Position numbers and translations under genes: made by a program. 64,000 nt of DNA from Candidatus Methylomirabilota bacterium (GTDB taxonomy: Bacteria; Acidobacteriota; Terriglobia; Acidiferrales; UBA7541): positions 4,017 through 68,016 of the forward strand of contig DATMMG010000184.1 of NCBI GenBank assembly GCA_035569815.1, in the 5' to 3' direction. Positions 45,422 through 61,996 of this stretch are shown piece by piece (position 1 is the stretch's first letter; each line of letters starts with the position of its first letter). Below the pieces are notes generated by a model, which saw only the letters and a list, made by a program, of their open reading frames with translations, was not told where the DNA came from and ran no database searches.

Positions 45422-48400
45422 ATGCAAGTCACGCGACTTCGCACGTGTGTTTGGGTATTGGTGTTGGCGCTTGCGGTTTTGTTCTGTGGACGGCTGAACG
45501 CCGGTGTAACGGCGAGCATTTCCGGGACAGTGACGGATGCAAGCGGCGCGGCGGTGGTGGGAGCAGCGGTGATCGCGACGAATCTGGAGACCGGGCTCGC
45601 CACGACGCAGACGACAAACGGGCAGGGATATTACTCGTTCCAGTCACTGGCGCTGGGGAAATACACGATTGACGTGCAGCATAAGGGATTCAAGGCGTAC
45701 CAGAAAACGGGAATTGTTCTGGAAGTAAACGACGCGCAGGTGGTAGACGTCCCGTTGCAGGTTGGGCAGAGTACAGAGAAAGTGGTGGTGGAGAGCGACG
45801 CGCTGCACGTGGAAACATCGAATACGCAGATGGGTGAAGTGATTGAAGGAAAGCAGATGACGGATGTGCCGCTACTAACGCGGAGTTTCACGGACCTGCT
45901 GTTCCTGCAACCTGGAGTAATTAACACGGCGTCCGGGATGTCCGGCGCGTATGCGGGCAGCTTTATTTCGGCGGGGTTTGCGTTGCCGCAGATTTCCGGT
46001 GACCAGAATTCCGGGGCGCAATCGGTGAATGGGATGCGCGAAGCGGCGAACGGGTTCATCCTCAACGGGCTGCTGGCGCAGGAGTCCGGCTATTCGGGAG
46101 CGGGAGCGATTCCGAACCTGGACTCGCTTGCAGAGTTCCGGATTTTGACGAATAACGCGGATGCCGAGTACGGGAACTATGCGGGCGGGCTGATCAACGT
46201 GGTGACAAAATCGGGTTCGAACAATTTCCACGGGAATGCGTTCGAATTTTTCCGGAACACGGACCTGAACACCGCGAATTTTTTCGCGGCCGGGCAGCGA
46301 GGGGCGTATCACCAGAATCAGTTCGGAGGCACCGTGGGCGGGCCGATCAAGAAGGATAAGCTGTTTTTCTTCGCAGATTACCAAGGGAACCGGCAGGTCG
46401 TCGGAGAAACGCAGGTAATTTCGAATGCGCCGGCGGAGACGCTGCTGCAGAACGGGAATCTTTCGTCGGTGTCGAGCGCGCTCACGGGAACCGTGCAGGG
46501 AACGGCGTGGGCGAACGAACTGACGACCCAGCTTGCGAATCAATTGGGCGGACAGACGGTTACCCCCGGGGAAGCTTACTACGCCCCGGGATGCACGGCG
46601 GATGGGGCGGGAGGAACCACGAAGTGCGTGTTTCCGACGTTGACGTTGAACCCGGCGAATTTCAATGGTATCTCCTCCAAACTTTTGCCCTTCATTCTGC
46701 CGCCGAACAATGCGAACGGAACGTTTTCGACGAGCGCACAAAAGCTGGACCTGACGGACAACAAGTTCAGCGGGCGAGTGGATGCCAACACGCATTTCGG
46801 GCTGTTGACGGCGTACTACTATTTCGACAAATTCGACAGAGTGGATCCTTACTGGGCGTCGAACGCACCGCTGTATCCGGGATTCAGCGTAGACAGCAAC
46901 GGGCACACGCACACGATTGACCTCGGGAACACGAAGACCTTTTCCTCGGCGGCGGTGAACGAGTTCCGGCTAGGGTATTTCCGGCTGGACACGAAGTTCA
47001 ACCAGCCGCTGGGTGGAACGGGAACGACGCTGGCAAGCCTGGGATTCGCGCCGGGAGGGTCACCGACTTCGCCGGGAGTCACAGTGGGAGCACCCAGCGT
47101 GCAGGGAGTTCCGGAAATCGACTTCAACAACTGGGTGATCGGGGTGCCCAGCCGTCCGAACCGGATCACTGAAAACATTTACCAGGCGATGGACAACTAC
47201 ACCCGGGTATTCGGCAAGCATACGTTGAAGGTCGGGGTGCAATATCACTTCAACCAGTTGGAAGAAAACCTGTTCAATGTGGCGAACGGGAACTTTTTCT
47301 TCGGCAGCAATTTCAGCGGGCAGCCGAGCGAAACGGGAAGCGACATCGTGGACTTCTTGTTGGGAGCGCCGACGCAGTTCGTGCAAGGGCAGTCATACCC
47401 CTCCTATGGGCGGACCTATTACTTCGGCGCGTTCGCACAGGACAGCTGGCGCGTGAAGTCGAACCTGACGTTCAATTACGGATTGCGGTATGACGTGAGC
47501 GCGCCGTGGCGTGAAAAGTACAACGAGATCCAGACGCTGATTCCGGGGGAGCAGTCGGTGGTGTTTCCGGGATCGCCGATCGGCTGGGTATTTCCGGGAG
47601 ATCCCGGTGTGCCGCGGAGCCTTGCGCCGACGCGGTGGAACAATTTCGCGCCGAGGTTGGGGCTGGCATATTCCTTCGGGGAGCATGAAGGGATGCTGGG
47701 GAAGGTGGTGGGTAAGCCGGGGTCCACGAGCGTCCGCGTAGGATGGGGAATGTTCTACAACACGTTTGAGGGCGCGACGGACTTCAACGAAATCGGGGAT
47801 GCGCCGTTTGGGAATTACACAGGGCAAAATCAGCCGAGCTTCGCGTCGCCGTTCCTTCAGCGGGGCAGCGGGTCCCTGGTCTCAAATCCATTTCCTGTAG
47901 CGCCGCCGCCGAAGAATTTTTCAGCCAAAAATCCGGCGACAGGGTTCCCGTACGACAATCTGTTCGATTTCTTCAACGCGTTCGGAACGATCGGAAGCTC
48001 GCCGGCGTTCAACAATCATAACCGGCTGCCGTACGCGGAGCATTATGAATTGTCAATCCAGCGAGAACTCACACCCTCGGACCTGCTGACGGTGAGCTAC
48101 GTTGGCACGCAAGGTCACCGATTGCTGTCGTCGATATCGGCGAATCCGGGGATTCCGTCACTTTGCCTGCAACTGCAATCAGCGGGCTGCGGGCCGGGTG
48201 GGGAGAACAACATCTATACGCTAGGTGGGGTCACCTATGCAGGAACGCGGGGGCCGTTCAGCACGCCGTATATCAATACGCCGATACCGACGCCGACGGG
48301 GCCGCAGTTCATCGTGCCGTTTGGAAACGATTCGTACTTCAGCACCATCGGGAATTCGGTATACAACTCGGCGCAGATCAGCTGGAAACATACGGCAAAG

Positions 48401-49090
48401 TCGTTATATGTGCTGCTGGGATATACGTATAGCAAGTCGATGGACGATTCTTCAGGATACGGGGAGCAGATCAACCCGTACAATCCGAGGCTGAGCCGCG
48501 GGCTTTCGGCATTCGATAGCACGCACAATTTCGTGGCCAGCTACAACTACCGGCTGCCGTTCGACAAGATTCAAACAGCCAAGCTGCTGACGCACGGATG
48601 GGAAATCGCCGGAGTGACGACGTTCTCGACGGGGCTGCCGATCACCATCGTGGAGACGGATGACCGGGCACTGACGGGAACGGGATTTGGCGGACCGATC
48701 GTGCTGCCGGTGGACACGCCGAATTACAACGGGGCTCCGTTGGGGATTACCAATCCGCGGAACAACCCGAACCACTACTTCTTCAACATTGGGAATTTCA
48801 GCCAAAGCGCCCTGGGGGTAGAAGGAAACGCGAACCGGCGGTTCTTCCACGGTCCGGGGATCAATAACTGGAACATGACCTTCAAGAAGATAACGCCAAT
48901 TCGGGAAAGCATGGCGCTGGAATTCCGGGCGGAGTTTTACAACCTGTTCAACCACGCGCAGTTCGTGAACCCAAGTGGATTGGTTCCCGGGCCGTTGGGG
49001 ACCCCCGCGGCGCCGCTGACCAACTTCGGCCAAGTGACGGTGGCGCGCGATCCGCGGCTGGCGCAGCTTGGATTGAAATTGAATTTTTAG
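45422..49090 (+). CDS. Oar-like TonB-dependent receptor (N-terminal carboxypeptidase-regulatory-like domain)
   Basis: Signal peptide, ISGTVTDASGA, AEYG..AGGLINVVTKSGSN, QNQFGGTVGGPI, C-terminal QLGLKLNF. Confidence 0.93.
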   Translation: MQVTRLRTCVWVLVLALAVLFCGRLNAGVTASISGTVTDASGAAVVGAAVIATNLETGLATTQTTNGQGYYSFQSLALGKYTIDVQHKGFKAYQKTGIVLEVNDAQVVDVPLQVGQSTEKVVVESDALHVETSNTQMGEVIEGKQMTDVPLLTRSFTDLLFLQPGVINTASGMSGAYAGSFISAGFALPQISGDQNSGAQSVNGMREAANGFILNGLLAQESGYSGAGAIPNLDSLAEFRILTNNADAEYGNYAGGLINVVTKSGSNNFHGNAFEFFRNTDLNTANFFAAGQRGAYHQNQFGGTVGGPIKKDKLFFFADYQGNRQVVGETQVISNAPAETLLQNGNLSSVSSALTGTVQGTAWANELTTQLANQLGGQTVTPGEAYYAPGCTADGAGGTTKCVFPTLTLNPANFNGISSKLLPFILPPNNANGTFSTSAQKLDLTDNKFSGRVDANTHFGLLTAYYYFDKFDRVDPYWASNAPLYPGFSVDSNGHTHTIDLGNTKTFSSAAVNEFRLGYFRLDTKFNQPLGGTGTTLASLGFAPGGSPTSPGVTVGAPSVQGVPEIDFNNWVIGVPSRPNRITENIYQAMDNYTRVFGKHTLKVGVQYHFNQLEENLFNVANGNFFFGSNFSGQPSETGSDIVDFLLGAPTQFVQGQSYPSYGRTYYFGAFAQDSWRVKSNLTFNYGLRYDVSAPWREKYNEIQTLIPGEQSVVFPGSPIGWVFPGDPGVPRSLAPTRWNNFAPRLGLAYSFGEHEGMLGKVVGKPGSTSVRVGWGMFYNTFEGATDFNEIGDAPFGNYTGQNQPSFASPFLQRGSGSLVSNPFPVAPPPKNFSAKNPATGFPYDNLFDFFNAFGTIGSSPAFNNHNRLPYAEHYELSIQRELTPSDLLTVSYVGTQGHRLLSSISANPGIPSLCLQLQSAGCGPGGENNIYTLGGVTYAGTRGPFSTPYINTPIPTPTGPQFIVPFGNDSYFSTIGNSVYNSAQISWKHTAKSLYVLLGYTYSKSMDDSSGYGEQINPYNPRLSRGLSAFDSTHNFVASYNYRLPFDKIQTAKLLTHGWEIAGVTTFSTGLPITIVETDDRALTGTGFGGPIVLPVDTPNYNGAPLGITNPRNNPNHYFFNIGNFSQSALGVEGNANRRFFHGPGINNWNMTFKKITPIRESMALEFRAEFYNLFNHAQFVNPSGLVPGPLGTPAAPLTNFGQVTVARDPRLAQLGLKLNF

Positions 49091-49127
49091 CAGGTTGTTG
49101 ATGAGCGTTTAAGGGCAATAACCCCGA

Positions 49128-49166
49128 GCGGGGAATCCTGGCCCAGCCGATTCCCCGCGATTTTTT
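49128..49166 (+). terminator. Intrinsic terminator-like hairpin after the receptor gene
   Basis: gcggggaatc-N11-gattccccgc followed by gatttttt. Confidence 0.6.
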
Positions 49167-49220
49167 GAAGAAGTACGAGGCCTCCCGGCCAATTCCAATG
49201 GAAGCGAAAGAGACTCGGCA

Positions 49221-50369
49221 ATGTCGGCCCAAGGCGTACTCGCAGCAACACTGGTAAAACCTGGACAGTACGAATTGCGTGAGTACCCGCTGCCGGAGCC
49301 GCGGCCGGGGTGTGTGCTGGTGAAGATGGAGATGTCCGGGATTTGCGGGACGGACAAGCACACGTTTCAGGGATATGTGACGCAGTACGGCGACCGGAAA
49401 CTGGAATTCCCGATTATTCAGGGCCACGAGAATGTGGGAACGATCGAGGCGATTGGAGGAGAAGGGCAGTACGCGGATTTTGAGGGCGTGGCGTTGCGGG
49501 TGGGCGACCGCGTGGTGGTGGGCGCGAATGTTTCGTGCGGGGAGTGTTACTACTGCCGGCACGATTTTCCATACTACTGCTGCGAGAAGACGACGGATTA
49601 CGGGAATAATTTGAGCGCGAAGAATCCGCCGCATTTGTTCGGCGGGTGGTCGCAATACATTTATATCGTGCCGGGAAGTTTTCTGGTGAAGGTGCCGGAC
49701 GATCTGCCGTCGGAAGTGGCGGTGCTGACGGAGATTTTCGCGGTTTCGGTGGGGCTGGACCGGGCGAAGCAGATGTCGGCGTTTCCGAATGAATCTTTCC
49801 GGTTCGACGATACCGTGGTGGTGATGGGCGTCGGGCCGCTGGGGATGTGTTTTTTGATGAAGGCGCGGATGTTGGGGGCGGGAACGATTATTGCGGTGGA
49901 TTTGTCGGAGTACCGGCTGGATTTTGCGAAGCGGCTGGGAGCGGATTATACGATTCATGCGGGGAAGATGTCTCAGAAGGAACGTTTGGAGCTTGTGAGA
50001 TCGCTGACGAACGGGCGCGGTGCGGACATGGTGGTGGAGTGCGCGGGAGTGCCGCAGGCGGTGCCGGAAGCGCTTGAGATGTTGCGGGTGAGCGGGCTGC
50101 TGGTGGAAGCGGGGAATTTTTCGGATTTGGGCGAGGTGGCGATCAGTCCGCACCGGCATTTGTGCGCGAAGAATGCGCGGATATTGTCGGTGGGAGGGGA
50201 AGAGCCGGCGGCGTACGGGCCGAGCATGAGGCAGATGACGCGGTATATGAAGCAGTACCCGTTGCGGGAGTTTGTTACGCACCGGTATGGATTGCGGGAT
50301 GTGGATGCGGCGATGGCGAAGGCGATTGGTGCGGAGTCGATGAAGGTGGTGTTGGAGCCGTGGAAGTGA
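49221..50369 (+). CDS. Zn-dependent medium-chain dehydrogenase (polyol/cyclitol type)
   Basis: GICGTD.H, GHE, CGECYYC structural Zn site, GVGPLG. Confidence 0.9.
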   Translation: MSAQGVLAATLVKPGQYELREYPLPEPRPGCVLVKMEMSGICGTDKHTFQGYVTQYGDRKLEFPIIQGHENVGTIEAIGGEGQYADFEGVALRVGDRVVVGANVSCGECYYCRHDFPYYCCEKTTDYGNNLSAKNPPHLFGGWSQYIYIVPGSFLVKVPDDLPSEVAVLTEIFAVSVGLDRAKQMSAFPNESFRFDDTVVVMGVGPLGMCFLMKARMLGAGTIIAVDLSEYRLDFAKRLGADYTIHAGKMSQKERLELVRSLTNGRGADMVVECAGVPQAVPEALEMLRVSGLLVEAGNFSDLGEVAISPHRHLCAKNARILSVGGEEPAAYGPSMRQMTRYMKQYPLREFVTHRYGLRDVDAAMAKAIGAESMKVVLEPWK

Positions 50370-50394
50370 AGGAGAGGATTGTGCGGATGTGAAG

Positions 50395-50422
50395 GGCGGC
50401 CCCACCAGGTCGGGGCCGCCAC
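50395..50422. repeat. REP-like hairpin
   Basis: ggcggcccc-accaggtc-ggggccgcc-ac. Confidence 0.55.
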
Positions 50423-50430
50423 GGGAGAAG

Positions 50431-51375
50431 ATGATGAGCGGATTGAAGGAGAGGTTTTTGTTTGCGTGTGCGCCGGATAGCTGGGGCGTGCTGGATTATC
50501 CGGGGCCGTCTTGGGAGCAGTCGTACGAGAAGATGCTGGATGAGATGGTGGAGGCGGGATACACGGGGACGGAGCTTGGTCCTTACGGATTTTTTCCGAC
50601 GGATCCGGCGGTGCTGAAGCCTCAGCTGGAGAAGAGGAAGCTGAAGCTTTTGGGATCGTTTGTGCCGGTGAAGATGACGGACCCGGCGGCGGGGAAGGCG
50701 GCTATTGAGCGGATTCGGAAAGTGGGGGATCTGCTGGCGACACTGAAGGCGCCGTTTCTGGTGATGGCGGACGATCAATCGCCGGAGCGGAATGCGTATT
50801 CGGGGCGGGTGTATGAGGAGGGCTGTCCGACGTTGACGGCGGCGCAGTGGAAGCATGTGGGAAACATTGTGGCGGACGCGGAGAAGGTGGCGCAGGAGTT
50901 TGGGCTGGATTTGGTGTTTCATCCGCATGTGGCGACGTATGTGGAGACGCCCGAGGAGTGCGAGCGGTTTTACGATGCGACTTCGCACACGAAGATTGGG
51001 CTTTGCCTGGACACGGGCCACTGCGTGTATGGACATGGGGATTCGGTGAGAGAGGCCGAGAAGTATAAGGATAAGCTGCGGTTTGTGCATATAAAGGACT
51101 GCGCTAACGTGGTGCTGGAAGAGGCGCGGAAGAGGCAGTGGACCTTTGAAGAGGCGATTGAACACAAGGTGTTCACGGTGATCGGGAAGGGGAATATTGA
51201 TTTTCCGGCGTTCTTTCGGACTTTGATTAAGAACGGATATTCGGGGTGGTCGGTGATTGAACAGGATGTGAAGTTTGGGGCTACGGAGATACCGTCGAAG
51301 GACAGTGTGGCCGCGAGCTTGCGGTATTTGGAAGGTGTGATGGGGCAGTTGAGCGCGGCGGCGAAAGCGGGCTGA
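50431..51375 (+). CDS. iolE: IolE/MocC-like inosose dehydratase (xylose isomerase-like TIM barrel)
   Basis: APDSWG, GTELGP, FHPHVATYVET, CLDTGH, VHIKD, EQD. Confidence 0.8.
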   Translation: MMSGLKERFLFACAPDSWGVLDYPGPSWEQSYEKMLDEMVEAGYTGTELGPYGFFPTDPAVLKPQLEKRKLKLLGSFVPVKMTDPAAGKAAIERIRKVGDLLATLKAPFLVMADDQSPERNAYSGRVYEEGCPTLTAAQWKHVGNIVADAEKVAQEFGLDLVFHPHVATYVETPEECERFYDATSHTKIGLCLDTGHCVYGHGDSVREAEKYKDKLRFVHIKDCANVVLEEARKRQWTFEEAIEHKVFTVIGKGNIDFPAFFRTLIKNGYSGWSVIEQDVKFGATEIPSKDSVAASLRYLEGVMGQLSAAAKAG

Positions 51376-51484
51376 AATTAGAAATTGGAAAAGAGAAGAG
51401 AGAAAAGATAACGCAGAGGCGCAGAGTACGCAGAGGTTTCGCAGAGAAGAGAAAGACAAGAACACAGGCTGAAGCCTGTGCTAC
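51374..51484. repeat. 7-mer repeat, CAGAG repeat and REP hairpin
   Basis: gaaattagaaattgg; aacgcagaggcgcagagtacgcagag; cacaggctgaagcctgtgctac (51463-51484). Confidence 0.82.
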
Positions 51485-51495
51485 CGAGGAGCGGA

Positions 51496-52524
51496 ATGCG
51501 GAAGATTAGGATGGGCGTGTTGGGCGTCGGGGAAATGGGGAAGCGGCACGCGGAGAATTTGCGGCGGCTGGTGCCGGGAGCGGAGTTGGTGGCGATTGCG
51601 GATGTGGTGGAAGCGCGGGCGAAGCAGGTCGCGGAGGAGTTGGAGGTGGAGCACGCGTTTGGAAGCCTGGAGGCGATGCTGGCGTTGAAGGGATTGCAGG
51701 CGGTGTTGATCTCGACGCCGGACAAGTTTCACGCGCAAGCGCTGATTCAGGCGGCGAAGGCGGGGAAGGACATTTTGTGCGAGAAGCCGCTGGCACTGAC
51801 GATGACCGACGCGCACGCGGCGTTGGATGCAGTGGCCAAGGCGGGGGTGCGCCTGCAGGTGGGATTTATGCGGCGGTACGATCCGGCTTACGCAGCGGCG
51901 ATGAAGCGGATTGAGGCGGGGGAGATTGGGACGCCGCTGATTTTCAAGTCGGTGGGGCGGGACAAGGACGAGCCGCCGATGGCGGCGTATCACTCCGGCG
52001 TGAACGGGATGATTTTTTACACGAATACCATTCACGATTTCGATTTGGCGCGGTGGATGATGCGGGACGAGGTGATTGAAGTGCATTCGTATGGCACCTC
52101 GGTGACGCGGCCGGAAGTGGCGAAGTTCGGGGATGTGGTGGCGAGTTCAGTGAATCTGCAATATCGCGGCGGGGCGATTGGAAATGTCGAGTCGTATGCT
52201 TCGGCGATTTACGCGTATGACGTGCGGACGGAGATATTGGGAACGAAGGGCGCAGTTTTCGTGGGAACCATCGAGCAGGCGCCGGCGGTTTTTTTGAGCG
52301 CGAACGGAAGTGCGCAAAAACTGGCGGATCATTTTCTCACGCGGTTTGCGGGCGCGTATCTGGCCGAGGTGCGGGATTTTGTACAGAACGTGCTTGACGA
52401 CAGACCTGTGCGGGTGACGGGCGAGGATGGATTGAAGGCGCTGGCGACGGCGGTGGCGGCGGAGAGTTCGATGAAGCAGGGAAGAGGGGTGAAGGTGACG
52501 CTGGAACGCTCAGCGGCAACTTGA
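51496..52524 (+). CDS. iolG: Inositol 2-dehydrogenase-like Gfo/Idh/MocA oxidoreductase
   Basis: GVGEMG, CEKP, VGFMRRYDP, IHDFD, YAYDVRTE. Confidence 0.82.
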   Translation: MRKIRMGVLGVGEMGKRHAENLRRLVPGAELVAIADVVEARAKQVAEELEVEHAFGSLEAMLALKGLQAVLISTPDKFHAQALIQAAKAGKDILCEKPLALTMTDAHAALDAVAKAGVRLQVGFMRRYDPAYAAAMKRIEAGEIGTPLIFKSVGRDKDEPPMAAYHSGVNGMIFYTNTIHDFDLARWMMRDEVIEVHSYGTSVTRPEVAKFGDVVASSVNLQYRGGAIGNVESYASAIYAYDVRTEILGTKGAVFVGTIEQAPAVFLSANGSAQKLADHFLTRFAGAYLAEVRDFVQNVLDDRPVRVTGEDGLKALATAVAAESSMKQGRGVKVTLERSAAT

Positions 52525-52561: not shown

Positions 52562-53656
52562 ATGACCCAAGCGACCGCTACGGCATTCAAGAGTCCGCTG
52601 CACAAGATGACGCAGACTACGCAGACGTGTTTGTGGAACGACTCCGCGTCGATCGAGGAATTGAAGTATTCGATGGAGCATGGCGGCGTGGGGGCGACGT
52701 GCAATCCGGTGATCGTGCTGGGTGTGCTGAAGAAAGAACTCGTCAATTGGAAGACGCGGATTGAGGCGTTGCTGAAGGACTTTCCGAACGCAACGGAAGA
52801 CGAGATTGCGTGGAAGGTGGTGCGGGAGATTTCGGTGCGGGCGGCGGCTCTGCTCAAGCCGGTTTTCGATGCGCAAGGCGGGAAGAACGGAAGACTTTCG
52901 ATTCAAACCGACCCGCGGCTGTATCGGGATGCGAAGAGTATTGTGGAGCAGGCGGAAGAGTTCAGCCGATTAGCGCCGAACATGATTGTGAAGATTCCGG
53001 TGACTTCGGCGGGGATACCGGCGATTGAAGAAGCGACGTACCGGGGGATCAGCATTAATGCGACGGTGTGTTTCACGCTGCCGCAGTGCGTTGCAGTGGC
53101 GGAAGCGGTGGAACGCGGGCTGAAGCGGCGGGAAAAAGAGGGCAACGAAATCGCGAGCATGGGGCCGGTGTGCACGATTATGGTCGGGCGGCTGGATGAT
53201 TGGCTGAAGGTGCTGATCGAAAAAGAGAATGTGGCCATTGATCCGGGATATACGGAGTGGGCGGGCGTGGCGGTGTTCAAGAATACGTACAAACTTTTTC
53301 GGGAACGCGGATACCGAATCCGGCTGCTGTCTGCGGCGTTTCGAAATCACATGCATTGGAGCGAAATGATTGGCGGGGAGTGCGTGATTTCGCCGCCGTA
53401 TTCGTGGCAGGTGCGATTTAACCGGAGCGATATTGAGGTGGTTTCGAGAATCGATAAGCCCGTGGCTGGGGAAATTGTGGAGGAGTTGGGGCGGAAGTTT
53501 GCGGATTTTCGGCGGGCGTATTCGGAGAATGGGATTGCGATTGGAGAGTTTGATTCGTTTGGGCCTACCCGGCGGACGTTGAGGCAGTTTATTGGGGCTT
53601 GCCACGATTTGGATGGAGTGGTGAGGGACATTATGTTGCCGAATCCGGATGCGTAG
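52562..53656 (+). CDS. Transaldolase-family protein, divergent active site
   Basis: TCNP, NMIVKIP Schiff-base Lys, INATVCF, VGRLDD. Confidence 0.88.
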   Translation: MTQATATAFKSPLHKMTQTTQTCLWNDSASIEELKYSMEHGGVGATCNPVIVLGVLKKELVNWKTRIEALLKDFPNATEDEIAWKVVREISVRAAALLKPVFDAQGGKNGRLSIQTDPRLYRDAKSIVEQAEEFSRLAPNMIVKIPVTSAGIPAIEEATYRGISINATVCFTLPQCVAVAEAVERGLKRREKEGNEIASMGPVCTIMVGRLDDWLKVLIEKENVAIDPGYTEWAGVAVFKNTYKLFRERGYRIRLLSAAFRNHMHWSEMIGGECVISPPYSWQVRFNRSDIEVVSRIDKPVAGEIVEELGRKFADFRRAYSENGIAIGEFDSFGPTRRTLRQFIGACHDLDGVVRDIMLPNPDA

Positions 53657-53675
53657 CTAGAAAAAAAGAGAAAAC

Positions 53676-53789
53676 TAACGCAGAGACGCAGAGTACGCCG
53701 AGCCGGAGCAGAGGAGAGAAACCCAAGAGCGGCCCGCCCCGCAAAACCGTCCGGTGCGCAACGAACGCGCCTCGGAAGGCGGGCCCTAC
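53676..53789. repeat. CAGAG repeat plus composite GTAG REP
   Basis: taacgcagagacgcagag...; gagcggcccgcc...gcgcaacgaacgcgcctcggaaggcgggccctac. Confidence 0.8.
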
Positions 53790-53845
53790 AACGCACGCCG
53801 TTGGATTTGTGTTCAGTTTGAATTTTTGAATGGAGGAATGGGCTC

Positions 53846-55144
53846 GTGGGAAAACTTGCGATTACGGGTGGGAAAGTCCTAAGGAAGACGCCGTTTACGA
53901 GGTGGCCGATTCCCACGAAGGCGGAGACGGCGGCTTTGAAGGATGTGCTGGAGAGCACGCTGTGGGGCGGGCAGCCGTTTCCGGGAAAACATGCGGCGGC
54001 GTTCGCGGCGAAATTTGCGAAGGTACATACCGCGAAGTACGGGCAGTGCGTGAACACGGGGACGGTGGCGATCCAGGCGGCGCTTAAGGCGATCGGGATC
54101 AAGCCGGGAGACGAAGTGATTGTGCCGGCGTACACCTGGGAAGGAACGGTCGGGCCGGTGCTGCTGGTGAACGCGGTGCCTGTGTTCGTGGATGTGGATC
54201 CGGACACGTATTGCCTGGACGCGAAGCTGATTGAGAAAGCGATAACGCCGAAGACGAAGGCGATTTTGCCGGTGCATCTGGGGATGCGCTTCGCGGACAT
54301 GGATGAGATTTTGCGCGTGGCTTCCAAACACAATTTAAAAGTTGTGGAAGACTGCGCGCATGCGCATGGCGGAAAGTGGAAGGGGAAGGGCGCGGGGTCG
54401 ATGGGAGACTTGGGCGCGTTCAGTTTTCAGTCGAGCAAACTGATTACTTCGGGAGAGGGCGGGGCTGTTATTACCAACAACCTGGAGTACATGGAACTCG
54501 TGCAGAGTTACATCAATGCCGGGCGGGCGAGCCTGACGGACAAATATAAGAAACGGATCATCGGTTTCAATTACCGGCTGGGAGAATTTCAGGCGGCGGT
54601 GCTGGGAGCTCAGCTGGAACGTATGGCGAAGCAAAGCGCGATTCGCGAGAAGAATATGAAGCGGTTTGAGGCGCGGCTGGCGAAAACGCCGGGGATCGGC
54701 TTGCTGAAGCCGGATCCGCGGATTACGCGGCTGGCGCCGTATGGGTATGTGATCAAGTATTTTGCGGAGAAGGTGAAGGAGCTTCCGCGGGCGGCGTTTG
54801 TGGCGGCGATGCAACTTGAGGGAGTGCATTGCGACGGGTTGTTTTACGAGCCGGTTTACAAGAGTTCGCTGTTTCCGGTGGATGCGACGGATTTTCCGGC
54901 GTTGAGCTGGGGGCGGGAAAAGGCCTTGGATTTGCGTTCGATGTATTCGTGCCCGGAGTCGGAGAGGGCGGCGTATCAGGAGGCGGTGTGGTTTCCGCAC
55001 CAGCACTTTTTGGGAAGTACGAAGGATGTGGATGATATTGCGGATGCGGTGCACAAGGTGCTGGAGAATGTTGAGGAGCTGAGAGGGTTGGATCATAAGG
55101 CGATACGGAATCAGAGGCTGGGTAGGGCGGATCGGGAGAGTTGA
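53846..55144 (+). CDS. DegT/DnrJ/EryC1/StrS PLP aminotransferase, StsC/BtrR/RifK-like
   Basis: LAITGG..RWP N-terminus, PVFVDVDPDTYCLD, EDCAHAHG, FSFQSSKLITSGEGG. Confidence 0.9.
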   Translation: MGKLAITGGKVLRKTPFTRWPIPTKAETAALKDVLESTLWGGQPFPGKHAAAFAAKFAKVHTAKYGQCVNTGTVAIQAALKAIGIKPGDEVIVPAYTWEGTVGPVLLVNAVPVFVDVDPDTYCLDAKLIEKAITPKTKAILPVHLGMRFADMDEILRVASKHNLKVVEDCAHAHGGKWKGKGAGSMGDLGAFSFQSSKLITSGEGGAVITNNLEYMELVQSYINAGRASLTDKYKKRIIGFNYRLGEFQAAVLGAQLERMAKQSAIREKNMKRFEARLAKTPGIGLLKPDPRITRLAPYGYVIKYFAEKVKELPRAAFVAAMQLEGVHCDGLFYEPVYKSSLFPVDATDFPALSWGREKALDLRSMYSCPESERAAYQEAVWFPHQHFLGSTKDVDDIADAVHKVLENVEELRGLDHKAIRNQRLGRADRES

Positions 55145-55174
55145 GGGCAGCGTTTAAGAGAAGAGCGAATAGCT

Positions 55175-55250
55175 TAACGCAGAGACGCAGAGGGCGCAGA
55201 GCCGGAGCAGAGAAGAGTAAACCAAGAACACAGGCTGAAGCCTGTGCTAC
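55175..55250. repeat. CAGAG repeat plus REP hairpin
   Basis: ttaacgcagagacgcagagggcgcagag; cacaggctgaagcctgtgctac (55229-55250), identical to 51463-51484. Confidence 0.85.
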
Positions 55251-55287
55251 TGGCGGGGAATTGTCGTGGGGACGTGAATCTACAACT

Positions 55288-56319
55288 ATGAAAACTGGGA
55301 AAAAGGTGGGGTTTGCGGTGGTGGGGCTGGGGGCGATTGCGCAGGGGGCGGTGCTGCCCGCGTTTCGGAATGCGAAGAAGGCGAGGCTTGTAGCGTTGGT
55401 TGGCCGGGACAAGCGGAAGGCCGAAAAGCTGACACGAAAATTTGGGGCAGCGGCGGCTTACGGGGCGGAGGAGTTTGGCGCTTGCCTGAAGAACCCAGAG
55501 GTTGATGCAGTTTATCTGGCTACGCCGCAGAGCGAGCACTTGAGCGGCACAATTGCAGCGGCTCGGGCGGGGAAGCACGTGCTTTGCGAAAAGCCGCTGG
55601 CGGTGAGGGCGGAGCAGTCGGCGGAGATGGTGCGGGTCTGCGAAGAGTGCGGCGTGCAGTTGATGACCGCGTACCGGAAATATTACGAGCCGAGCGCGTT
55701 GTACCTGAAAAATTTGATTCAGAGCGGGAAGCTAGGGAAGATTGATGTAATCAACACTTCGTTCAGCGAGCTGCATGTGGCGGGGCGGTCGATTCCCTGG
55801 CTGCTGGATTCCAAAGTGGCGGGCGGCGGGCCGTTGATGGATTTGGGCGTCTATTGCGTGAACACGAGCCGGTGGCTGGTGGAAGAGGATCCGGTGGAGG
55901 TTAGCGCGCACGCATGGAGAAAAGATTTGGAACGATTTCGGGACGTAGAGGAAGGGATATCGTTCCGGATGCATTTTGCAAGCGGGCTGGTGGTGCAGGG
56001 GACATCGACGTACAGCTCGGCGATTTCGTCGTTTGTGTTTGTGCAAGGAACGAAGGGATGGGCTTGCCTGACGCCGGCGTTTCCGTTTGATGAGGAGCGG
56101 CGGTTGACGGGAAAGATTGGCGGGAAGTGGTTTGAGAAGGGCTTCAAGGTGGTGGATGAGTTTGCGCCGGAGCTGGATGCGTTTGCGACGGCGATTCAGA
56201 CGAAGAAGCGCGTTGAGGCTGATGGGCAGCAGGGGCATTGGGACATGATTATTCTGGAGGCGATTTATGCGTCGGCGAGGAGTGGGGCGCCGGTTAGCGT
56301 AAGATACGGAATTCGTTGA
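55288..56319 (+). CDS. Gfo/Idh/MocA oxidoreductase (GFOR-like)
   Basis: VGLGAIA, CEKP, GGGPLMDLGVY. Confidence 0.9.
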   Translation: MKTGKKVGFAVVGLGAIAQGAVLPAFRNAKKARLVALVGRDKRKAEKLTRKFGAAAAYGAEEFGACLKNPEVDAVYLATPQSEHLSGTIAAARAGKHVLCEKPLAVRAEQSAEMVRVCEECGVQLMTAYRKYYEPSALYLKNLIQSGKLGKIDVINTSFSELHVAGRSIPWLLDSKVAGGGPLMDLGVYCVNTSRWLVEEDPVEVSAHAWRKDLERFRDVEEGISFRMHFASGLVVQGTSTYSSAISSFVFVQGTKGWACLTPAFPFDEERRLTGKIGGKWFEKGFKVVDEFAPELDAFATAIQTKKRVEADGQQGHWDMIILEAIYASARSGAPVSVRYGIR

Positions 56320-56338: not shown

Positions 56339-56369
56339 TTCACCACGGAGAGCACAGAGGGCACAGAGC
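56339..56369 (+). repeat. CAGAG purine repeat
   Basis: ttcaccacggagagcacagagggcacagag. Confidence 0.65.
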
Positions 56370-56374
56370 AGATC

Positions 56375-57454
56375 ATGAGCGTTGGGAAGAGTGCCGGACG
56401 GAAGAAGAGTGGAGGGGCCGCTAGTATTTATGATGTGGCGCGGGAGTCCGGGGTGTCTGTGTTTACCGTGTCGGCGGTGGTTAACAACAAGAGTCATGTG
56501 GGCAAGGGGCTACGGGAACGCGTGGAGGCAGCGATTCGGAAGCTGAATTACCGGCCGAACCTGATCGCGCGGAGTTTGGCGAAGCAGCGAACGCACACGA
56601 TCGGGATGATTGTGCCGGACATCGGGAATCCGTTTTTCCCTATAGTGGTGCGCGGAGCGGAGGATGCCGCGCAGAAGCACGGCTACAACTTGTTGCTCTG
56701 CAACAGCGACGACTCGCTGGACAAGGAAGAGAAGGCGATCGAGCTGCTACTTTCGAAGCGGGTGGATGGAATTTTGCTGACGAAGGCGGCGGGGGATTTC
56801 CGGCCGCCGCTGCGGCAAATGATCAAGGAAGTGGATATTCCGTTCGTGCTGGTGATGCGGACGTATCCGAAGCTAACAAAGGATGCGGTGATCACTGACG
56901 ATTACCACGGAGCATATGAAGCGGTGTCGCACCTGGCGCGCGCGGGACGGAAGCGGATTGCGCTGATCAGCGGACCGCTGAAGGTGAGCAATGCGAAAGA
57001 ACGCTGGCAGGGATTTCATGACGCGCTGAAGGCGGAGGGGTTGCCGTACGAAGAGGATCTGGTGATTGAAGGCGATTACCGGCTGGAGTCCGGATTTCGC
57101 GCGGGGCACGCGTTATTTTCGCGGCGACCGGATGGAATTTACGTGGCGAATCATTTGATGACGATAGGATTACTGCAGGCGGCGGAGGAGATGGGGTTGC
57201 GCTGCCCGGAGGATTATGGGCTGGTGAGCTTTGATGATTATCCGTGGCTGGGGATTTTCCGGCCGCGGCTCACCACGGTGGAATTGCCGAAGCATCAGCT
57301 GGGGACGGAGGCGGCGGAGCTTTTGATCAAGCGGATCACGGGAGACGCGAGTAAGCCGGTGCTGCGGAAATTGCAGCCGGAGTTGCGGATTCGGGAGTCG
57401 TGTGGATTTGGATTGCGGGCGGGTGGGGAAGCGAAAATAGAATTTGGAAAATAG
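56375..57454 (+). CDS. LacI-family transcriptional regulator
   Basis: SIYDVARESGVSVFTVSAV HTH, YRPN.IARSL hinge, SFDD, LTTV. Confidence 0.96.
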   Translation: MSVGKSAGRKKSGGAASIYDVARESGVSVFTVSAVVNNKSHVGKGLRERVEAAIRKLNYRPNLIARSLAKQRTHTIGMIVPDIGNPFFPIVVRGAEDAAQKHGYNLLLCNSDDSLDKEEKAIELLLSKRVDGILLTKAAGDFRPPLRQMIKEVDIPFVLVMRTYPKLTKDAVITDDYHGAYEAVSHLARAGRKRIALISGPLKVSNAKERWQGFHDALKAEGLPYEEDLVIEGDYRLESGFRAGHALFSRRPDGIYVANHLMTIGLLQAAEEMGLRCPEDYGLVSFDDYPWLGIFRPRLTTVELPKHQLGTEAAELLIKRITGDASKPVLRKLQPELRIRESCGFGLRAGGEAKIEFGK

Positions 57455-57548
57455 AAATTAGAAAAGAGAAAAGATTTAACACAGAAAACACAGAGGAAGA
57501 GCACGGAGTTCGCAGAGAAGAGCGGCATGCCTCGGAAGTCGGGCCTAC
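57431..57548. repeat. 7-mer repeat, CAGAG repeat and degenerate REP
   Basis: gaaaata gaatttg gaaaata gaaatta; aacacagaaaacacagaggaagagcacggag; gcctcggaagtcgggcctac. Confidence 0.75.
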
Positions 57549-57559
57549 AGATGGGGAAA

Positions 57560-58936
57560 TCAGGTTTCGCTGAAGTCGAAGAGTTTTGGTCGGAGTGTAA
57601 AACCTTTGGTTTTGTAGGCCGCGTAGAGAATTCCCGCCACTAGCCAGAGGATGCCGGCCCATTTGGTCCAGTTTTGCAGGCTGAATAACAATCCAAAACA
57701 GAAGACGAAACCGAAGCCGGGGACGAAGGCGTCCACGAAGAAGTTGCGTTTGCCGGCGTTTTCGGGGCCGAAGGAAAAGTGCAAGAGGGAGACGAGGTTG
57801 ACTCCCATGAAGGCGATCAGCGCGCCGAAGGTGACGATTTCGGCGGCGAGTTCCCACGGAATGGTGAGTACGCCAATGTAAGCGAGGACGCCGACGATCC
57901 AAACGTTGTAAATGGGATTGCCTTTTGTGGGGCTGATGTGGCCGAAGATTTTTTTGGGGAGAACATCGTCTCGGCCCATGCTGAAGAGAAGGCGGGAGGC
58001 GCCGACGTGTCCGGCGAGGCCGCAGGCGATGCTGGAGACGAGGAGCATGATGCCGTAGGCGTGAAACAGCCAGGGACCGCTGGCGGCGCGGGCGACGTCC
58101 ATGAATGCGGTTTCAGGATTCGCATACGTGGAGTAGTCGGGAAGAACGCGCTGCGCCATATATACCTGGAAGCCGCTGAAGAGACCAGTGAAGATGCAGA
58201 CGAGGACGGAAGCGAGGAGGACGTTGCGGCGCGGATTTTCGACCTCTTCCGCGAGGATGGATACGCCGTCGAAGCCGATGAAGACGAGAGCGGCGAGACC
58301 GGTGCCGGAAGCAACGAGGCGATAGTTGAAGGTTTCGGGATTGTAAAGGGGCTTCATAGAGATAAGGCCGGAGAAATGCTGGTGAAGGATGATGTAGCGG
58401 AAGGCCTCGATGAGGAATGCAGCGGTTACAATGACCATGAAGGAGAGGAGAACTTCGTTGGTTCGGGCGGTGAATTTGATGCCCTGGACGGTCATGAAGG
58501 TGATGAGGCCGACGGTGAGGGCGGCGAGGATGGCGAAGGGAATTTTTGGGGCCATGCGCTGGATGGCGAGAACGGCGTAGAGCGCGTTTTGGATGGGCTG
58601 AAAAAGATATTCGAGGAACATGGCCCATCCAACGACGAAGCCGACGTGAGGATTGAGTCCTTTGCTGATGTAGGTGTAGACGGAACCGGAGGAAGGATAG
58701 ACGGTGGCCATGCGGCCAAAGCTGACGGCGGTGACGGACATGGCGACCATGGCTAGCAGCAACGTGGTGACGGCGTGGCCATGGGAGAGGACTTGGGCTT
58801 CGCCGAAGAGCGGGACGGCGGCGATGGGGGACGTGAGGATGACGCCGTAGTAGATGAGGTCCCACAGGCCGAGGACGCGCTTCAGGCGGGGTTGCGCGGG
58901 GGGCGCCGCTTCGAGTGTCCCAGTCGTTGTTTCCAC
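57560..58936 (-). CDS. APC-family permease resembling PuuP/PlaP-type amine importers
   Basis: About 12 TM; LKRVLGLWDL, YPSSGSVYTY, FIGFDGVSILAEE. Confidence 0.88.
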   Translation of the reverse strand: METTTGTLEAAPPAQPRLKRVLGLWDLIYYGVILTSPIAAVPLFGEAQVLSHGHAVTTLLLAMVAMSVTAVSFGRMATVYPSSGSVYTYISKGLNPHVGFVVGWAMFLEYLFQPIQNALYAVLAIQRMAPKIPFAILAALTVGLITFMTVQGIKFTARTNEVLLSFMVIVTAAFLIEAFRYIILHQHFSGLISMKPLYNPETFNYRLVASGTGLAALVFIGFDGVSILAEEVENPRRNVLLASVLVCIFTGLFSGFQVYMAQRVLPDYSTYANPETAFMDVARAASGPWLFHAYGIMLLVSSIACGLAGHVGASRLLFSMGRDDVLPKKIFGHISPTKGNPIYNVWIVGVLAYIGVLTIPWELAAEIVTFGALIAFMGVNLVSLLHFSFGPENAGKRNFFVDAFVPGFGFVFCFGLLFSLQNWTKWAGILWLVAGILYAAYKTKGFTLRPKLFDFSET

Positions 58937-59016
58937 GGCGGCCTCTTTCGGATGCGAAAAGATTTCGGGGCCCGATTGCTTTTCCGAGCGAACAACATAC
59001 GCCGTTCAGGTGTGAC

Positions 59017-59098: not shown

Positions 59099-59112
59099 AG
59101 TCAGGGCACACC

Positions 59113-60966
59113 TCAAAAGAAAAAACGTTCCTTCTTGCGCGCGTCTTCGTAGTTTTTGCGGGCGGCGCGAACGGATTCGCGCTCGGAGACTTCGGCGATG
59201 GGGACGTCCCACCAGGATTCGTAGCCGGGGACACGTTCGTCGTAGGAGGTTTCGACGACGACCACGGAGGTGCGGTCCTGTTTGCGTGCCGCGGCGAGCG
59301 CATTGCGAAATTCGTCGTGAGTTTTGGCGCGCGCGGTCCAGGCGCCGAGGCTGGCGGCGTTGGCGGCGAAGTCCACGGGGATTGGGTCACCGTCGTATTT
59401 ATCACCGCGGCGATAGCGGTAGTTGGTGCCCATGCCTTCGTTGCCGCAGCCGCGGCTGAGGCCGCCAATGCTGGAGAAGCCGTGATTGTCGAGGAGGACG
59501 ATGTTGAGTTTGACGCCTTCTTGCAATGACGTGACGATTTCCTGGGCCATCATCAGGTAAGAGCCGTCGCCGACCATTACGTAGACTTCACGATTCGGAT
59601 TGGCCATTTTTGCGCCGAGGCCGCCGGCAATTTCGTAGCCCATGCAGGAGTAGCCGTACTCCATGTGGTAGCCGCCGGGTTGGCGGGTGCGCCAGAGTTT
59701 GTGGAGATCGCCGGGAAGGCTGCCAGCGGCGCAGAGGAGAATGTCGGAGGGTTCGGTGAAGGAGTTGAGTGCGCCGATGACTTCGCCCTGGGAGAGGGGA
59801 GGGGCTTTGCGGACGGCGTAGATGCGATCGACTTCTTTTTCCCAGTCGGCTCTGAAGGTGGCGATGCGGGCGGCGAAGTTTGTTTCGACCTTGTATCCAG
59901 CGACAGCGGATTGGAGTTCTTCGAGCGTGGCTCGGGCGTCGCCAGTTAGCGGTAGAGCTGCGTGTTTGTAGGCATCGAATTCGGCGACGTTGATATTGAT
60001 GAAGCGGACGGCGGGATTCTGGAAGGCGGTTTTGGAGGCGGTGGTGAAATCGGAGTAGCGGCTGCCGATGCCGATGACGAGGTCGGCTTCGCGGGCGGCG
60101 ATGTTTGCGCCGGGCGTGCCGGTGACGCCGACGGCGCCGAGTTGCTGCGGGTGATCGTAAGGGAGGGAACCTTTGCCGGCTTGGGTTTCGCAGACGGGGA
60201 TGCCGGTGGATTCAGCGAAACTTGCGAGGGCGCGGGAGGCTTCGGAATAGAGAACGCCGCCGCCGGCTACGATGAGAGGGCTTTTTGCGCGACGAATTAA
60301 AGCGGCGGCTTGAGCCAGGAGTTCCTTGTCGCAACGGGTGCGAGGAATGATCCAGACGCGCTTGCGGAAGAATTCTTCGGGAAAGTCGAAGGCTTCAGCT
60401 TGCACGTCCTGCGGGAGGCTGAGGGTAACGGCGCCGGTGTCGGCGGGAGAGGTGAGGACGCGCATGGCTTCGGGCAGGGAAGTGAGGAGTTGTTCGGGGC
60501 GCTGGATGCGATCCCAGTAGCGGGAGACGGGCTTGAAACAATCGTTGACGGAGATATCTTGCGTGGAGGGAGATTCGAGTTGCTGGAGAACGGGTGCGAC
60601 GTTGCGGCGGGCGAAGATGTCACCCGGGAGCAATAGAACGGGGACGCGGTTGATGGTTGCGGCGGCGGCGCCGGTGAGCATGTTGGTGGAGCCGGGGCCG
60701 ATGGAAGTGGTGCAGGCGAGGGTGCGAAGGCGGAAGGAAGATTTGGCGAAGGCGGCGGCGGTGTGGACCATAGCCTGTTCATTGCGGCAAAGGTAGTAGG
60801 GGAGGCCGGGGTCTTGTTCGAGGGCCTGGCCCATGCCGGCGACGTTGCCGTGGCCGAAGATGCCGAAGCAGCCTTCGATGAGGCGGTGCTCCTGGGAGTC
60901 ACGGCTGGAAAATTGAGACCGAAGGAAAGCGACGATGGCCTGGGCGACGGTGAGGCGGCGGGTCAT
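59113..60966 (-). CDS. iolD: 3D-(3,5/4)-trihydroxycyclohexane-1,2-dione acylhydrolase IolD
   Basis: GIFGHGN, LLPGDIFA, EYGYSCMGYE, GDGSY ThDP motif, SWWDVP. Confidence 0.96.
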   Translation of the reverse strand: MTRRLTVAQAIVAFLRSQFSSRDSQEHRLIEGCFGIFGHGNVAGMGQALEQDPGLPYYLCRNEQAMVHTAAAFAKSSFRLRTLACTTSIGPGSTNMLTGAAAATINRVPVLLLPGDIFARRNVAPVLQQLESPSTQDISVNDCFKPVSRYWDRIQRPEQLLTSLPEAMRVLTSPADTGAVTLSLPQDVQAEAFDFPEEFFRKRVWIIPRTRCDKELLAQAAALIRRAKSPLIVAGGGVLYSEASRALASFAESTGIPVCETQAGKGSLPYDHPQQLGAVGVTGTPGANIAAREADLVIGIGSRYSDFTTASKTAFQNPAVRFININVAEFDAYKHAALPLTGDARATLEELQSAVAGYKVETNFAARIATFRADWEKEVDRIYAVRKAPPLSQGEVIGALNSFTEPSDILLCAAGSLPGDLHKLWRTRQPGGYHMEYGYSCMGYEIAGGLGAKMANPNREVYVMVGDGSYLMMAQEIVTSLQEGVKLNIVLLDNHGFSSIGGLSRGCGNEGMGTNYRYRRGDKYDGDPIPVDFAANAASLGAWTARAKTHDEFRNALAAARKQDRTSVVVVETSYDERVPGYESWWDVPIAEVSERESVRAARKNYEDARKKERFFF

Positions 60967-61056
60967 GAAGAGATTCTCCTGAGAAGGGGAGCGCGGGACA
61001 GGGAACAAGCTTGAGCGTGAAGTGGCAGGAGAGACTCGGGGAAAAACGCAGGAATC

Positions 61057-61070
61057 TCTAAGCGCTTATC
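61057..61070. promoter_or_regulatory. LacI-family operator upstream of iolD (GATAAGCGCTTAGA on the minus strand)
   Basis: 12/14 identical to the 45297 site, with symmetric changes that keep the palindrome. Confidence 0.62.
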
Positions 61071-61147
61071 GAGTGACTTTCCGGTGAGCTTGCCTGGGTG
61101 GTTTGCGGCCATCGCCCGTCCTCTTGAATTGCGGGAAGTGTACAGCT

Positions 61148-61996
61148 TCAACGCACCAACGGCAATCGCGGATCGAGATCTTTCCAGGTGGATTTCAGCC
61201 AGACATGATTGGGGTCTTCGGTGACGGCCAGGGTGCGGGAAGTTCCCGCGAGGAAATTGAGGTAGTAGACGTCGTAGCCGGGACCGGCGACTACGGGATG
61301 AAAGCCGGAGCGGACGAGTACGGCGTCGCCGTCTTGAGCGCGGACAGTTGTGTCGTGAGAGAGATCGGGGGAATAGAGGCGCTGGAGAGCGAAGCCTTCG
61401 TTCGGACGATTGATGCGGTAGTAGTAGATTTCGTCGAGGTCGACCTCGGCGGGGGGATTGTGGACATCGTGCTTGTGTGGAGGAAAGCTGGACCAGTTGC
61501 CGCCGGGAGTGTAGACCTCGATGACAACGAGTTTGTCGGCGGGGAAGTCCGGGCGGATGATGTCGACGATCTGGCGGGAAGCGTTTCCACCGCCACGGAG
61601 GCCGCTAACGACGTCATTTGGAGTGATCAGCTTGGGCTGAAGTTTCGCATGGGAAGGGACGCGGCACTCGGCAATTTCGCAAACGGTTTCCGCCTGGAAT
61701 GTGACGGAATGATTCGTGGGGAGATACAGGCAATAAGGGAGGCCATCGAAAACATGTTTGCGCTGGCCGATGGAGTGGGGGCCTTCTCCCCAATTCGCGG
61801 TGCAGCGGCCGCCGAGGAGGACGAACGCGGCTTCTTCACCATTCGTGGAGGCGGAATACGTTTCGCCGGGATTCAGACGCCGAGCGGACATGCTCATCCA
61901 TTCCCACTGGACGGCGTCACGGGAGAAGTGCAGCAGTTCGCCGGAGTGGCCTTCGGGGAGAGAGCGAGAATGGACGATGTTCGGAGCTGTGGACAT
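61148..61996 (-). CDS. iolB: 5-deoxy-glucuronate isomerase IolB
   Basis: EVYTPGGNWSSFPPHKHD, EIYYY, GFHP, YYLNFLAG. Confidence 0.96.
   Translation of the reverse strand: MSTAPNIVHSRSLPEGHSGELLHFSRDAVQWEWMSMSARRLNPGETYSASTNGEEAAFVLLGGRCTANWGEGPHSIGQRKHVFDGLPYCLYLPTNHSVTFQAETVCEIAECRVPSHAKLQPKLITPNDVVSGLRGGGNASRQIVDIIRPDFPADKLVVIEVYTPGGNWSSFPPHKHDVHNPPAEVDLDEIYYYRINRPNEGFALQRLYSPDLSHDTTVRAQDGDAVLVRSGFHPVVAGPGYDVYYLNFLAGTSRTLAVTEDPNHVWLKSTWKDLDPRLPLVR

Follow-up and report, generated by a model that had tools for sequence, protein, structure and literature searches.

In a stretch of 64,000 nucleotides (hereafter the window) from a soil acidobacterium, we examined a locus of 11 genes at positions 45422-61996, in which genes for inositol catabolism are found together with a gene for an aminotransferase of the DegT family (hereafter AT). 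The window belongs to contig C184 (DATMMG010000184.1) of a 2.2-Mb metagenome-assembled genome, which is 57% complete and represents an uncultured member of Terriglobia ("Ca. Acidoferrales"). The genes are ordered as those for a TonB-type receptor, a Zn-dependent alcohol dehydrogenase-like protein (Zn-ADH), an IolE-like protein, an IolG-like protein, a transaldolase/FSA-like protein, AT, an oxidoreductase resembling glucose-fructose oxidoreductase (GFOR), a LacI-family repressor, an APC-superfamily permease, IolD, and IolB. They are arranged as two predicted convergent operons: namely, a plus-strand operon running from the receptor through the repressor and a minus-strand operon with IolB, IolD, and the permease. 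On one side, the locus is flanked by flagellar genes (flgI to flgL), and on the other, by a Nudix gene.

The locus is real, and every gene named in the original prediction is present and intact; the iolG-, iolE-, iolD-, and iolB-like genes indeed cluster with the receptor, the Zn-dependent dehydrogenase, a second Gfo/Idh/MocA enzyme, the permease, and AT. That inventory was nonetheless incomplete, because it omitted the genes for the transaldolase/FSA-like protein (52562-53656) and the LacI-family repressor (56375-57454). On a 2.85-Mb metagenomic contig, the same 11 genes were found in the same order (63-88% protein identity) with other flanking genes; the borders of the locus are therefore the receptor gene and IolB. 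Also, the gene arrangement is not a matter of chance, since the whole locus recurs with new flanks and in rearranged orders in other Terriglobia. A decaying copy was noticed in the same genus (L097, G001:C1:29000-48900), where IolD is split and contains an in-frame TGA, the permease gene is broken into two parts, IolB is truncated, and neither AT nor Zn-ADH is present.

In terms of inositol catabolism, IolD (3D-(3,5/4)-trihydroxycyclohexane-1,2-dione acylhydrolase; 59113-61008, minus strand) matches TIGR04377 at 936 bits, over the cut-off of 715, and IolB (5-deoxy-glucuronate isomerase; 61148-61996, minus strand, with its ATG at 61996) matches PF04962 (KduI/IolB) at 271 bits. The IolE-like inosose dehydratase (50389-51375, plus strand), a xylose-isomerase-like TIM barrel, scores 203 bits with TIGR04379, under the cut-off of 290, and its top solved relatives are the IolE structures 3CNY and 9ZMU. 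The IolG-like inositol 2-dehydrogenase (51478-52524, plus strand) scores 322 bits with TIGR04380, slightly under the cut-off of 355, and is closest among solved proteins to TM0414 (3EZY) and inositol dehydrogenases. Zn-ADH (49221-50369, plus strand), assigned to the MDR family with Pfam and NCBIfam, has 1VJ0 as its best solved relative and shows a weak likeness to the IolM model of NCBIfam (150 bits versus a cut-off of 450). This gene invariably adjoins the IolE-like gene and encodes the sole dehydrogenase of the iol cluster in genome G009. The second Gfo/Idh/MocA enzyme (hereafter Gfo2; 55285-56319, plus strand) resembles GFOR and aldose-aldose oxidoreductase.

Enzyme class of the aminotransferase

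AT (53846-55144, plus strand) is a pyridoxal 5'-phosphate (PLP) enzyme that we assign, with Pfam, phmmer, a sequence profile, a phylogenetic tree, and a structural model, to a probable (2-deoxy-)scyllo-inosose aminotransferase type. It matches PF01041 at 300.6 bits (cut-off, 19.8) over residues 28-346, and the four motifs that had been quoted for it were all found in the translation; indeed, the PLP-binding K198 (in FSFQSSK) and D169 (in EDCAHAHG), which pairs with the pyridine nitrogen, are invariant across 25 diverse relatives. When AT was searched against all solved structures with phmmer, BtrR and RbmB came first (241, 240, and 209 bits) and were aligned over residues 15-403, followed by perosamine synthase (188 bits, aligned only to approximately residue 294) and NtdA (120 bits); the solved nucleotide-sugar enzymes gave lower scores with the alignment limited to the N-terminal two thirds of AT. 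A profile built from the 25 relatives gave 418, 418, and 411 bits for BtrR/RbmB, 349 bits for AHBA synthase, and at most 304 bits for nucleotide-sugar enzymes. Furthermore, the best Foldseek matches of an AlphaFold2 model of AT (pLDDT, 91.7) were BtrR (5W71, 2C7T, and 2C81) and RbmB (5W70), with TM scores of 0.81-0.89 and 33-36% identity, and then Fic25 and AHBA synthase; the substrates of these top structural matches are all without a nucleotide. AT had been likened to StsC and to BtrR/RifK relatives, and this likeness is borne out with BtrR and RbmB as the nearest solved enzymes and AHBA synthase as the next.

A maximum-likelihood tree of 80 sequences, from which StsC, MosB, BtrR, and the PDB sequences were left out, was evaluated with SH-aLRT support. 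PseC and WbpE-like outgroups were placed outside a 76-row clade (100% support) that holds the window AT, and AT does not, therefore, group with nucleotide-sugar enzymes. The window AT falls in a 33-row clade (97% support) that also contains, though not as its sister, an AT encoded on plasmid pHS1 of Sodalis praecaptivus, the gene of which adjoins a 2-deoxy-scyllo-inosose synthase gene. An AHBA-synthase-like enzyme encoded beside a polyketide synthase belongs to a separate sub-clade, and the AT orthologues with at least 78% identity form one clade with 100% support. These comparisons support the assignment of AT to the small-molecule (cyclitol-type) branch of the DegT family and not to the nucleotide-sugar enzymes; the placement with the cyclitol enzymes is supported but, at 33-36% identity, not tight.

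Two plasmid-borne clusters with related enzymes were noted in this survey. In cultured S. praecaptivus (L100, pHS1, 384009-395412), genes for 2-deoxy-scyllo-inosose synthase, a DegT aminotransferase, a PIG-L deacetylase, and a glycosyltransferase likely constitute a 2-deoxystreptamine-type biosynthetic cluster. A haloarchaeal megaplasmid of Natrononativus amylolyticus (L101, NZ_CP101459.1, 261841-281055) encodes a related DegT aminotransferase next to a PIG-L deacetylase, an AAC(3)-family acetyltransferase, a class III aminotransferase, a TIM-barrel protein, an FAD oxidoreductase, and a Rid protein, and looks like an amino-sugar or aminoglycoside-like conversion cluster. Matches on rhizobial plasmids were considered as MosB and then rejected; they are WbpE-like enzymes in sugar clusters, among which no MosB was identifiable.

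Linkage of the aminotransferase with inositol genes

Co-occurrence of AT with iol genes in other genomes holds for its close orthologues: among those with at least 78% identity, IolD was found within 15 kb in 12 of 14 cases (the window, L003, L014, L015, L016, L017, L022, L023, G011, G023, G373, and G589), the distance in L023 being 15 kb. The other two (G017 and G485) sit on contig fragments, and all the remaining contexts were readable. The AT-iol clusters show at least five gene orders, in which AT follows the transaldolase-like gene or IolG or comes immediately behind the receptor gene, and the linkage has therefore been maintained through rearrangement. In G373 and G023, AT is flanked by the receptor gene and by Gfo2-ZnADH-IolE, all on one strand and separated by short gaps; Gfo2 itself directly adjoins AT in the window, L003, L014, L015, L023, G023, G373, and G589. 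Also, AT occurs alongside both of the two lower pathways described below, namely the transaldolase type and the IolC type (AT with IolC in G373), and this co-occurrence places its connection at the upper, inosose part of the pathway. Judged from these gene neighborhoods, we regard the link of AT to inosose chemistry as real.

More distant relatives of AT were also encountered. The same family of aminotransferase is found with a TonB-type receptor, an APC permease, and a LacI or ROK regulator in three loci of other Acidobacteriota (L045, L049, and L079). In two of them (L045, 7177-13811; L049, 5113-16366), a more distant member of the AT clade is accompanied by a receptor, an APC permease, and a ROK/LacI regulator but by no iol genes, and these may be further uptake-and-deamination systems for amines. 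Members of a sister clade (63-67% identity) were seen in two Terriglobia genomes without IolD (L018, 10001-12669; L020, 9971-14167), where a MurB-like reductase gene follows within one or two genes. A contig search with a 67%-identity paralogue and a 55% representative returned nothing or one 1.9-kb contig.

A variant lower pathway

The transaldolase/FSA-family enzyme (52562-53656, plus strand) was assigned with Pfam (TAL_FSA) and by alignment to 3R5E. It shares with Escherichia coli FSA and transaldolase B (TalB) the TAL_FSA fold and the Schiff-base Lys, and a Gln residue is found at the position of TalB Glu96, as is the case in FSA. Unlike these two enzymes, it has Met at the position of TalB Phe178 and FSA Tyr131, occurs in iol clusters without IolC, and is far under the cut-offs of all transaldolase and FSA models.

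IolC over the cut-off was found neither in this genome (57% complete) nor in five related IolD-positive genomes (80-97% complete), and IolA is located elsewhere in four of these five. We then turn to a class-wide sample, in which 50 genomes belong to the family of the window, 11 of those possess IolD, and two of the 11 possess AT. The transaldolase-like gene is present in nine of the 11 IolD-positive genomes, and the two genomes lacking it (G373 and G577) have a true IolC in the cluster (323 and 345 bits; cut-off, 300), which in G373 is adjoined by a gene for a Cgl0159-like aldolase. Orthologues of the transaldolase-like gene are found in AT-free iol clusters of other acidobacterial families as well (IolD, transaldolase-like gene, IolE, IolB, and receptor). 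Since IolC over the cut-off is seen only where the transaldolase-like gene is absent (the window, 52562-53656; L143/L146 of G373; L147 of G577; L115/L116), the transaldolase-like enzyme and IolC with the Cgl0159-like aldolase are alternatives to each other, and this mutual exclusivity in related clusters substantiates the proposal of a variant iol pathway. The transaldolase-like enzyme thus likely replaces IolC and its aldolase, giving a kinase-free end of the inositol pathway. We infer that it would act as a Schiff-base aldolase at the C5 ketone of 2-deoxy-5-keto-gluconate to produce dihydroxyacetone (or to transfer it) and malonate semialdehyde. This replacement is a separate and well-supported variant of the pathway.

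Regulation and transport

The TonB-type outer-membrane receptor (45422-49090, plus strand) is composed of a CarboxypepD_reg domain and an OMP_b-brl_4 barrel (575 bits, Pfam), and its gene is kept at 64-70% identity in related loci. Profile matches identified the LacI-family repressor (56375-57454, plus strand) and the APC-superfamily permease (57560-58936, minus strand), a predicted inner-membrane importer. A candidate LacI operator, ATAACCGGTTAGA (45298-45310, plus strand), lies upstream of the receptor gene, and a second candidate copy, CTAACCGGCTAGA (62158-62170, plus strand), lies upstream of IolB. Indeed, when one mismatch at most is allowed, the 13-nt pattern YTAACCGGYTAGA has only two matches in the 64-kb window, at 45298 and 62158, versus 0.03 expected by chance. 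From the gene spacing and this common operator-like motif, the wiring of the locus into operons and a regulon is inferred.

A scan for consensus promoters and terminators performed no better than shuffled sequences (5 sites versus 5.4 expected), and TTGACA-17-TATAAC ahead of the receptor gene was read by eye only. Between the receptor and Zn-ADH genes (49100-49180), there is a GC-rich hairpin with a T run behind it (GGGGAATC...GATTCCCCGCGATTTTTT), which may serve as a partial terminator uncoupling the receptor from enzyme expression. No RNA run was found among the listed holders of the locus, which are soil metagenomes.

The called open reading frame of Gfo2 (55141-56319) overlaps with AT by 4 bp, and this overlap was discarded as an artefact: the upstream TTG is spurious, the extension crosses an intergenic repeat, and translation probably begins at Met49, consistent with an orthologue called from a Met matching position 55285. 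The repeats form a family (TAACGCAGAGACGCAGAG...), frequently ending in the hairpin CACAGGCTGAAGCCTGTG, that occupies at least six intergenic gaps in a single orientation (51400-51480, 53670-53790, 55170-55250, 56340-56370, 57470-57540, and 62250-62320) and generates spurious extensions of open reading frames. The GC skew of the entire window is, furthermore, unusually strong (0.11-0.39).

Discussion

The locus would be a LacI-controlled system for the uptake and catabolism of inositol-type cyclitols. Its core would consist of an inosose-forming dehydrogenase (the IolG-like protein or Zn-ADH) followed by IolE, IolD, IolB, and the transaldolase/FSA-like enzyme, the last of which would substitute for the kinase IolC and its aldolase. 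To this core, an accessory module appears to have been added that comprises AT and usually the GFOR-like oxidoreductase. AT would be a cytoplasmic PLP enzyme of the scyllo-inosose/2-deoxy-scyllo-inosose aminotransferase type and would convert an imported amino-cyclitol (scyllo-inosamine or a close isomer) and a 2-oxo acid to an inosose and an amino acid. The inosose would then enter the IolE-IolD-IolB route either directly or after redox epimerization by the neighboring oxidoreductase, and the cell would obtain both carbon and nitrogen from the amino-cyclitol.

Scyllo-inosose is the product of IolG-type enzymes, and the IolG-like and other dehydrogenases in the AT operon point to a supply of inosose in a context that is catabolic and not that of a cyclase or of biosynthesis. 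A DegT-family enzyme, MosB, interconverts scyllo-inosose and scyllo-inosamine with glutamate (PMC6668481). The most economical reading of the locus would thus be that AT connects a pool of inosamine with the inosose degraded by IolE, IolD, and IolB. Deamination is the favored direction because the receptor, permease, repressor, and ring-cleavage genes are present while biosynthetic tailoring genes are absent (no glycosyltransferase, amidinotransferase, cyclase, or other biosynthetic genes were found among the locus proteins), and also because AT sits between the receptor and dehydratase genes in some variants. Even so, we would put the chance that AT deaminates an inosamine-type compound for catabolism of the ring at about even. 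Concerning the interpretation as originally proposed, the enzyme class of AT and its linkage to iol genes have stood, and the argument from an amine permease has not.

Several observations weigh against this role of AT. AT is accessory to the iol locus and present in a minority of lineages: it is dispensable in that nine of the 11 IolD-positive genomes of the family have none, and iol clusters without AT were found in G009, G001 (decaying), G208, G248, and G577. In another family, 22 of 47 genomes carry a member of the sister clade of AT (61-67% identity), and of these 22, only four possess IolD, in no case on the same contig; the neighbors of the sister-clade genes are unrelated (MurB-like, acyl-CoA ligase, and MarR). 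Since so many sister-clade genes occur where IolD is missing, the original function of this line of enzymes was not linked to iol, and the iol-linked AT seems to have been recruited recently from a lineage that served another purpose. Nor does the permease hint at an amine substrate. It had been labeled as amine-type, yet its homologues elsewhere in the phylum (35-47% identity) neighbor an aminotransferase in none of 22 cases; three of the 22 adjoin LacI genes, and other neighbors are Zn-ADH or receptor genes. The permease was accordingly dropped as an indicator of amines. To these points must be added the biosynthetic precedents: amines are classically made in two steps by a dehydrogenase and an aminotransferase encoded side by side, as in StrI/StsC, NtdC/NtdA, and RifL/RifK, and the characterized relatives of AT are all biosynthetic.

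These precedents speak for an alternative in which the inositol imported by the locus is oxidized to scyllo-inosose, a portion of which receives an amino group to become an inosamine; the product could serve as a signal, compatible solute, nitrogen store, or building block, like mosB/idhA in rhizopine synthesis or StrI/StsC in streptidine synthesis. The pairing of a dehydrogenase with AT fits such biosynthetic modules, LacI-family regulators are also known to govern amino-sugar synthesis (the ntd operon), and the sister clade, with its conservation within a lineage in genomes that lack IolD, is more reminiscent of a housekeeping or biosynthetic enzyme. AT is, however, embedded among genes for a receptor, a permease, a dehydratase, and ring cleavage that would destroy the same inosose, and the locus contains no tailoring, export, or resistance genes and no omega-amidase for glutamine-driven, irreversible amination; we consider synthesis to be decidedly unlikely. 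Somewhat less unlikely, in our estimate, is that the substrate of AT and the GFOR-like oxidoreductase is not a cyclitol but an imported sugar bearing an amino or keto group, for instance kanosamine or another 3-amino or 3-keto sugar, or else an amino-deoxy aldose, and that the two enzymes share only the regulon and transport with the iol genes. The oxidoreductase is indeed nearest to GFOR, aldose-aldose oxidoreductase, and D-xylose 1-dehydrogenase, enzymes with sugar substrates, and the wider AT clade contains the non-cyclitol enzymes AHBA synthase and Fic25; furthermore, members of the AT clade in other phyla frequently adjoin Gfo/Idh/MocA genes but have no iol genes nearby, and the sister clade occurs independently of IolD. 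A sugar substrate would, on the other hand, leave unexplained why, in every readable context, the close orthologues of AT neighbor IolD-type clusters, across many gene orders and both lower pathways. The nearest characterized enzymes use inososes, and no sugar kinase, isomerase, or glycosidase is encoded in the locus.

An ordinary nucleotide-sugar aminotransferase for envelope polysaccharide, placed in the locus by accident, would account for the automatic annotation of close homologues as "dTDP-4-amino-4,6-dideoxygalactose transaminase" and for the matches of NCBIfam nucleotide-sugar models at 150-185 bits. Those matches are nonetheless far under the cut-offs of 375-650 bits, the solved nucleotide-sugar enzymes score lower and align only with the N-terminal two thirds, the tree separates the outgroups with 100% support, and a nucleotidyltransferase, a dehydratase of the nucleotide-sugar type, and a glycosyltransferase are all missing from the locus. 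This explanation is hence barely credible.

Comparison with known systems

AT shares with BtrR (Niallia circulans), RbmB (Streptomyces ribosidificus), and the StsC type the DegT fold, the length of approximately 420-430 amino acids, and the catalytic Lys and Asp, and the substrate class implied by its neighbors (an inosose from IolG) is the same. Those enzymes aminate and are encoded in aminoglycoside biosynthetic clusters, whereas AT is encoded in a repressor-controlled locus for uptake and ring cleavage. With the canonical iol system (IolG-E-D-B-C-J-A of Bacillus subtilis and Salmonella), the locus shares IolD over the curated cut-off and IolB by Pfam; the IolE- and IolG-like proteins are below the curated cut-offs, yet IolE and inositol dehydrogenase structures are their best matches. 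The canonical IolC and IolJ are both absent from the locus, which has the transaldolase/FSA-like enzyme instead. AT, Zn-ADH, and the TonB-type receptor are additions to the canonical set, and the APC permease replaces the MFS/ABC inositol transporter. In a survey of 193,757 genomes, IolBCDE was described as the core, and an aminotransferase, a transaldolase, and Acidobacteria were not mentioned (PMC9430895).

The mos/moc system of Sinorhizobium meliloti L5-30 for rhizopine (scyllo-inosamine or 3-O-methyl-scyllo-inosamine) is the only described bacterial route by which an inosamine is used as a source of carbon and nitrogen through the inositol pathway. It shares with our locus the types of a Gfo/Idh/MocA enzyme (MocA) and an IolE-like protein (MocC), and the synthetic enzyme MosB is a DegT-family scyllo-inosose:glutamate aminotransferase. 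The other moc parts, namely the ABC binding protein MocB, the MocR/GntR regulator, and the MocDEF oxygenase, are not among the proteins of the locus; it has instead a LacI-type regulator and an APC permease, and its host is a free-living soil acidobacterium and not a rhizobium. The catabolic genes for rhizopine are mocRABCDEF, in which no aminotransferase is assigned to catabolism and the function of MocC is not established (PMC10107442). Our literature search found no description of an aminotransferase or a transaldolase in iol catabolic clusters or of degradation pathways for aminocyclitols.

In conclusion, what is new here is a predicted inositol catabolic locus with an accessory aminotransferase of the probable inosose type and a putatively kinase-free lower branch. 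We know of no catabolic route for free aminocyclitols with an assigned deaminating enzyme, the rhizopine moc system included. If AT deaminates inosamines, it would be without precedent as a catabolic enzyme in a group so far encountered only in the biosynthesis of antibiotics and rhizopine. The locus is of consequence for annotation, too: the AT genes are at present labeled as dTDP-sugar transaminases. A more far-reaching idea, to which we give little credence at present, is that soil Acidobacteriota and, by convergent recruitment, other phyla might feed on aminocyclitols (including streptamine/2-deoxystreptamine cores set free from aminoglycoside antibiotics, or rhizopine-like signals) through reversed inosose aminotransferases of the "aminoglycoside type," with the carbon passed on to an inositol pathway that needs no kinase and ends with an FSA-like aldolase; if true, this would be a sink in soil not described before for these compounds. 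Deamination of inosamines by AT would, in turn, provide a gene marker for aminocyclitol turnover in soil metagenomes, given that thousands of close homologues exist, and would explain how the abundant but hard-to-culture Acidobacteriota of soil gain carbon and nitrogen from such compounds.

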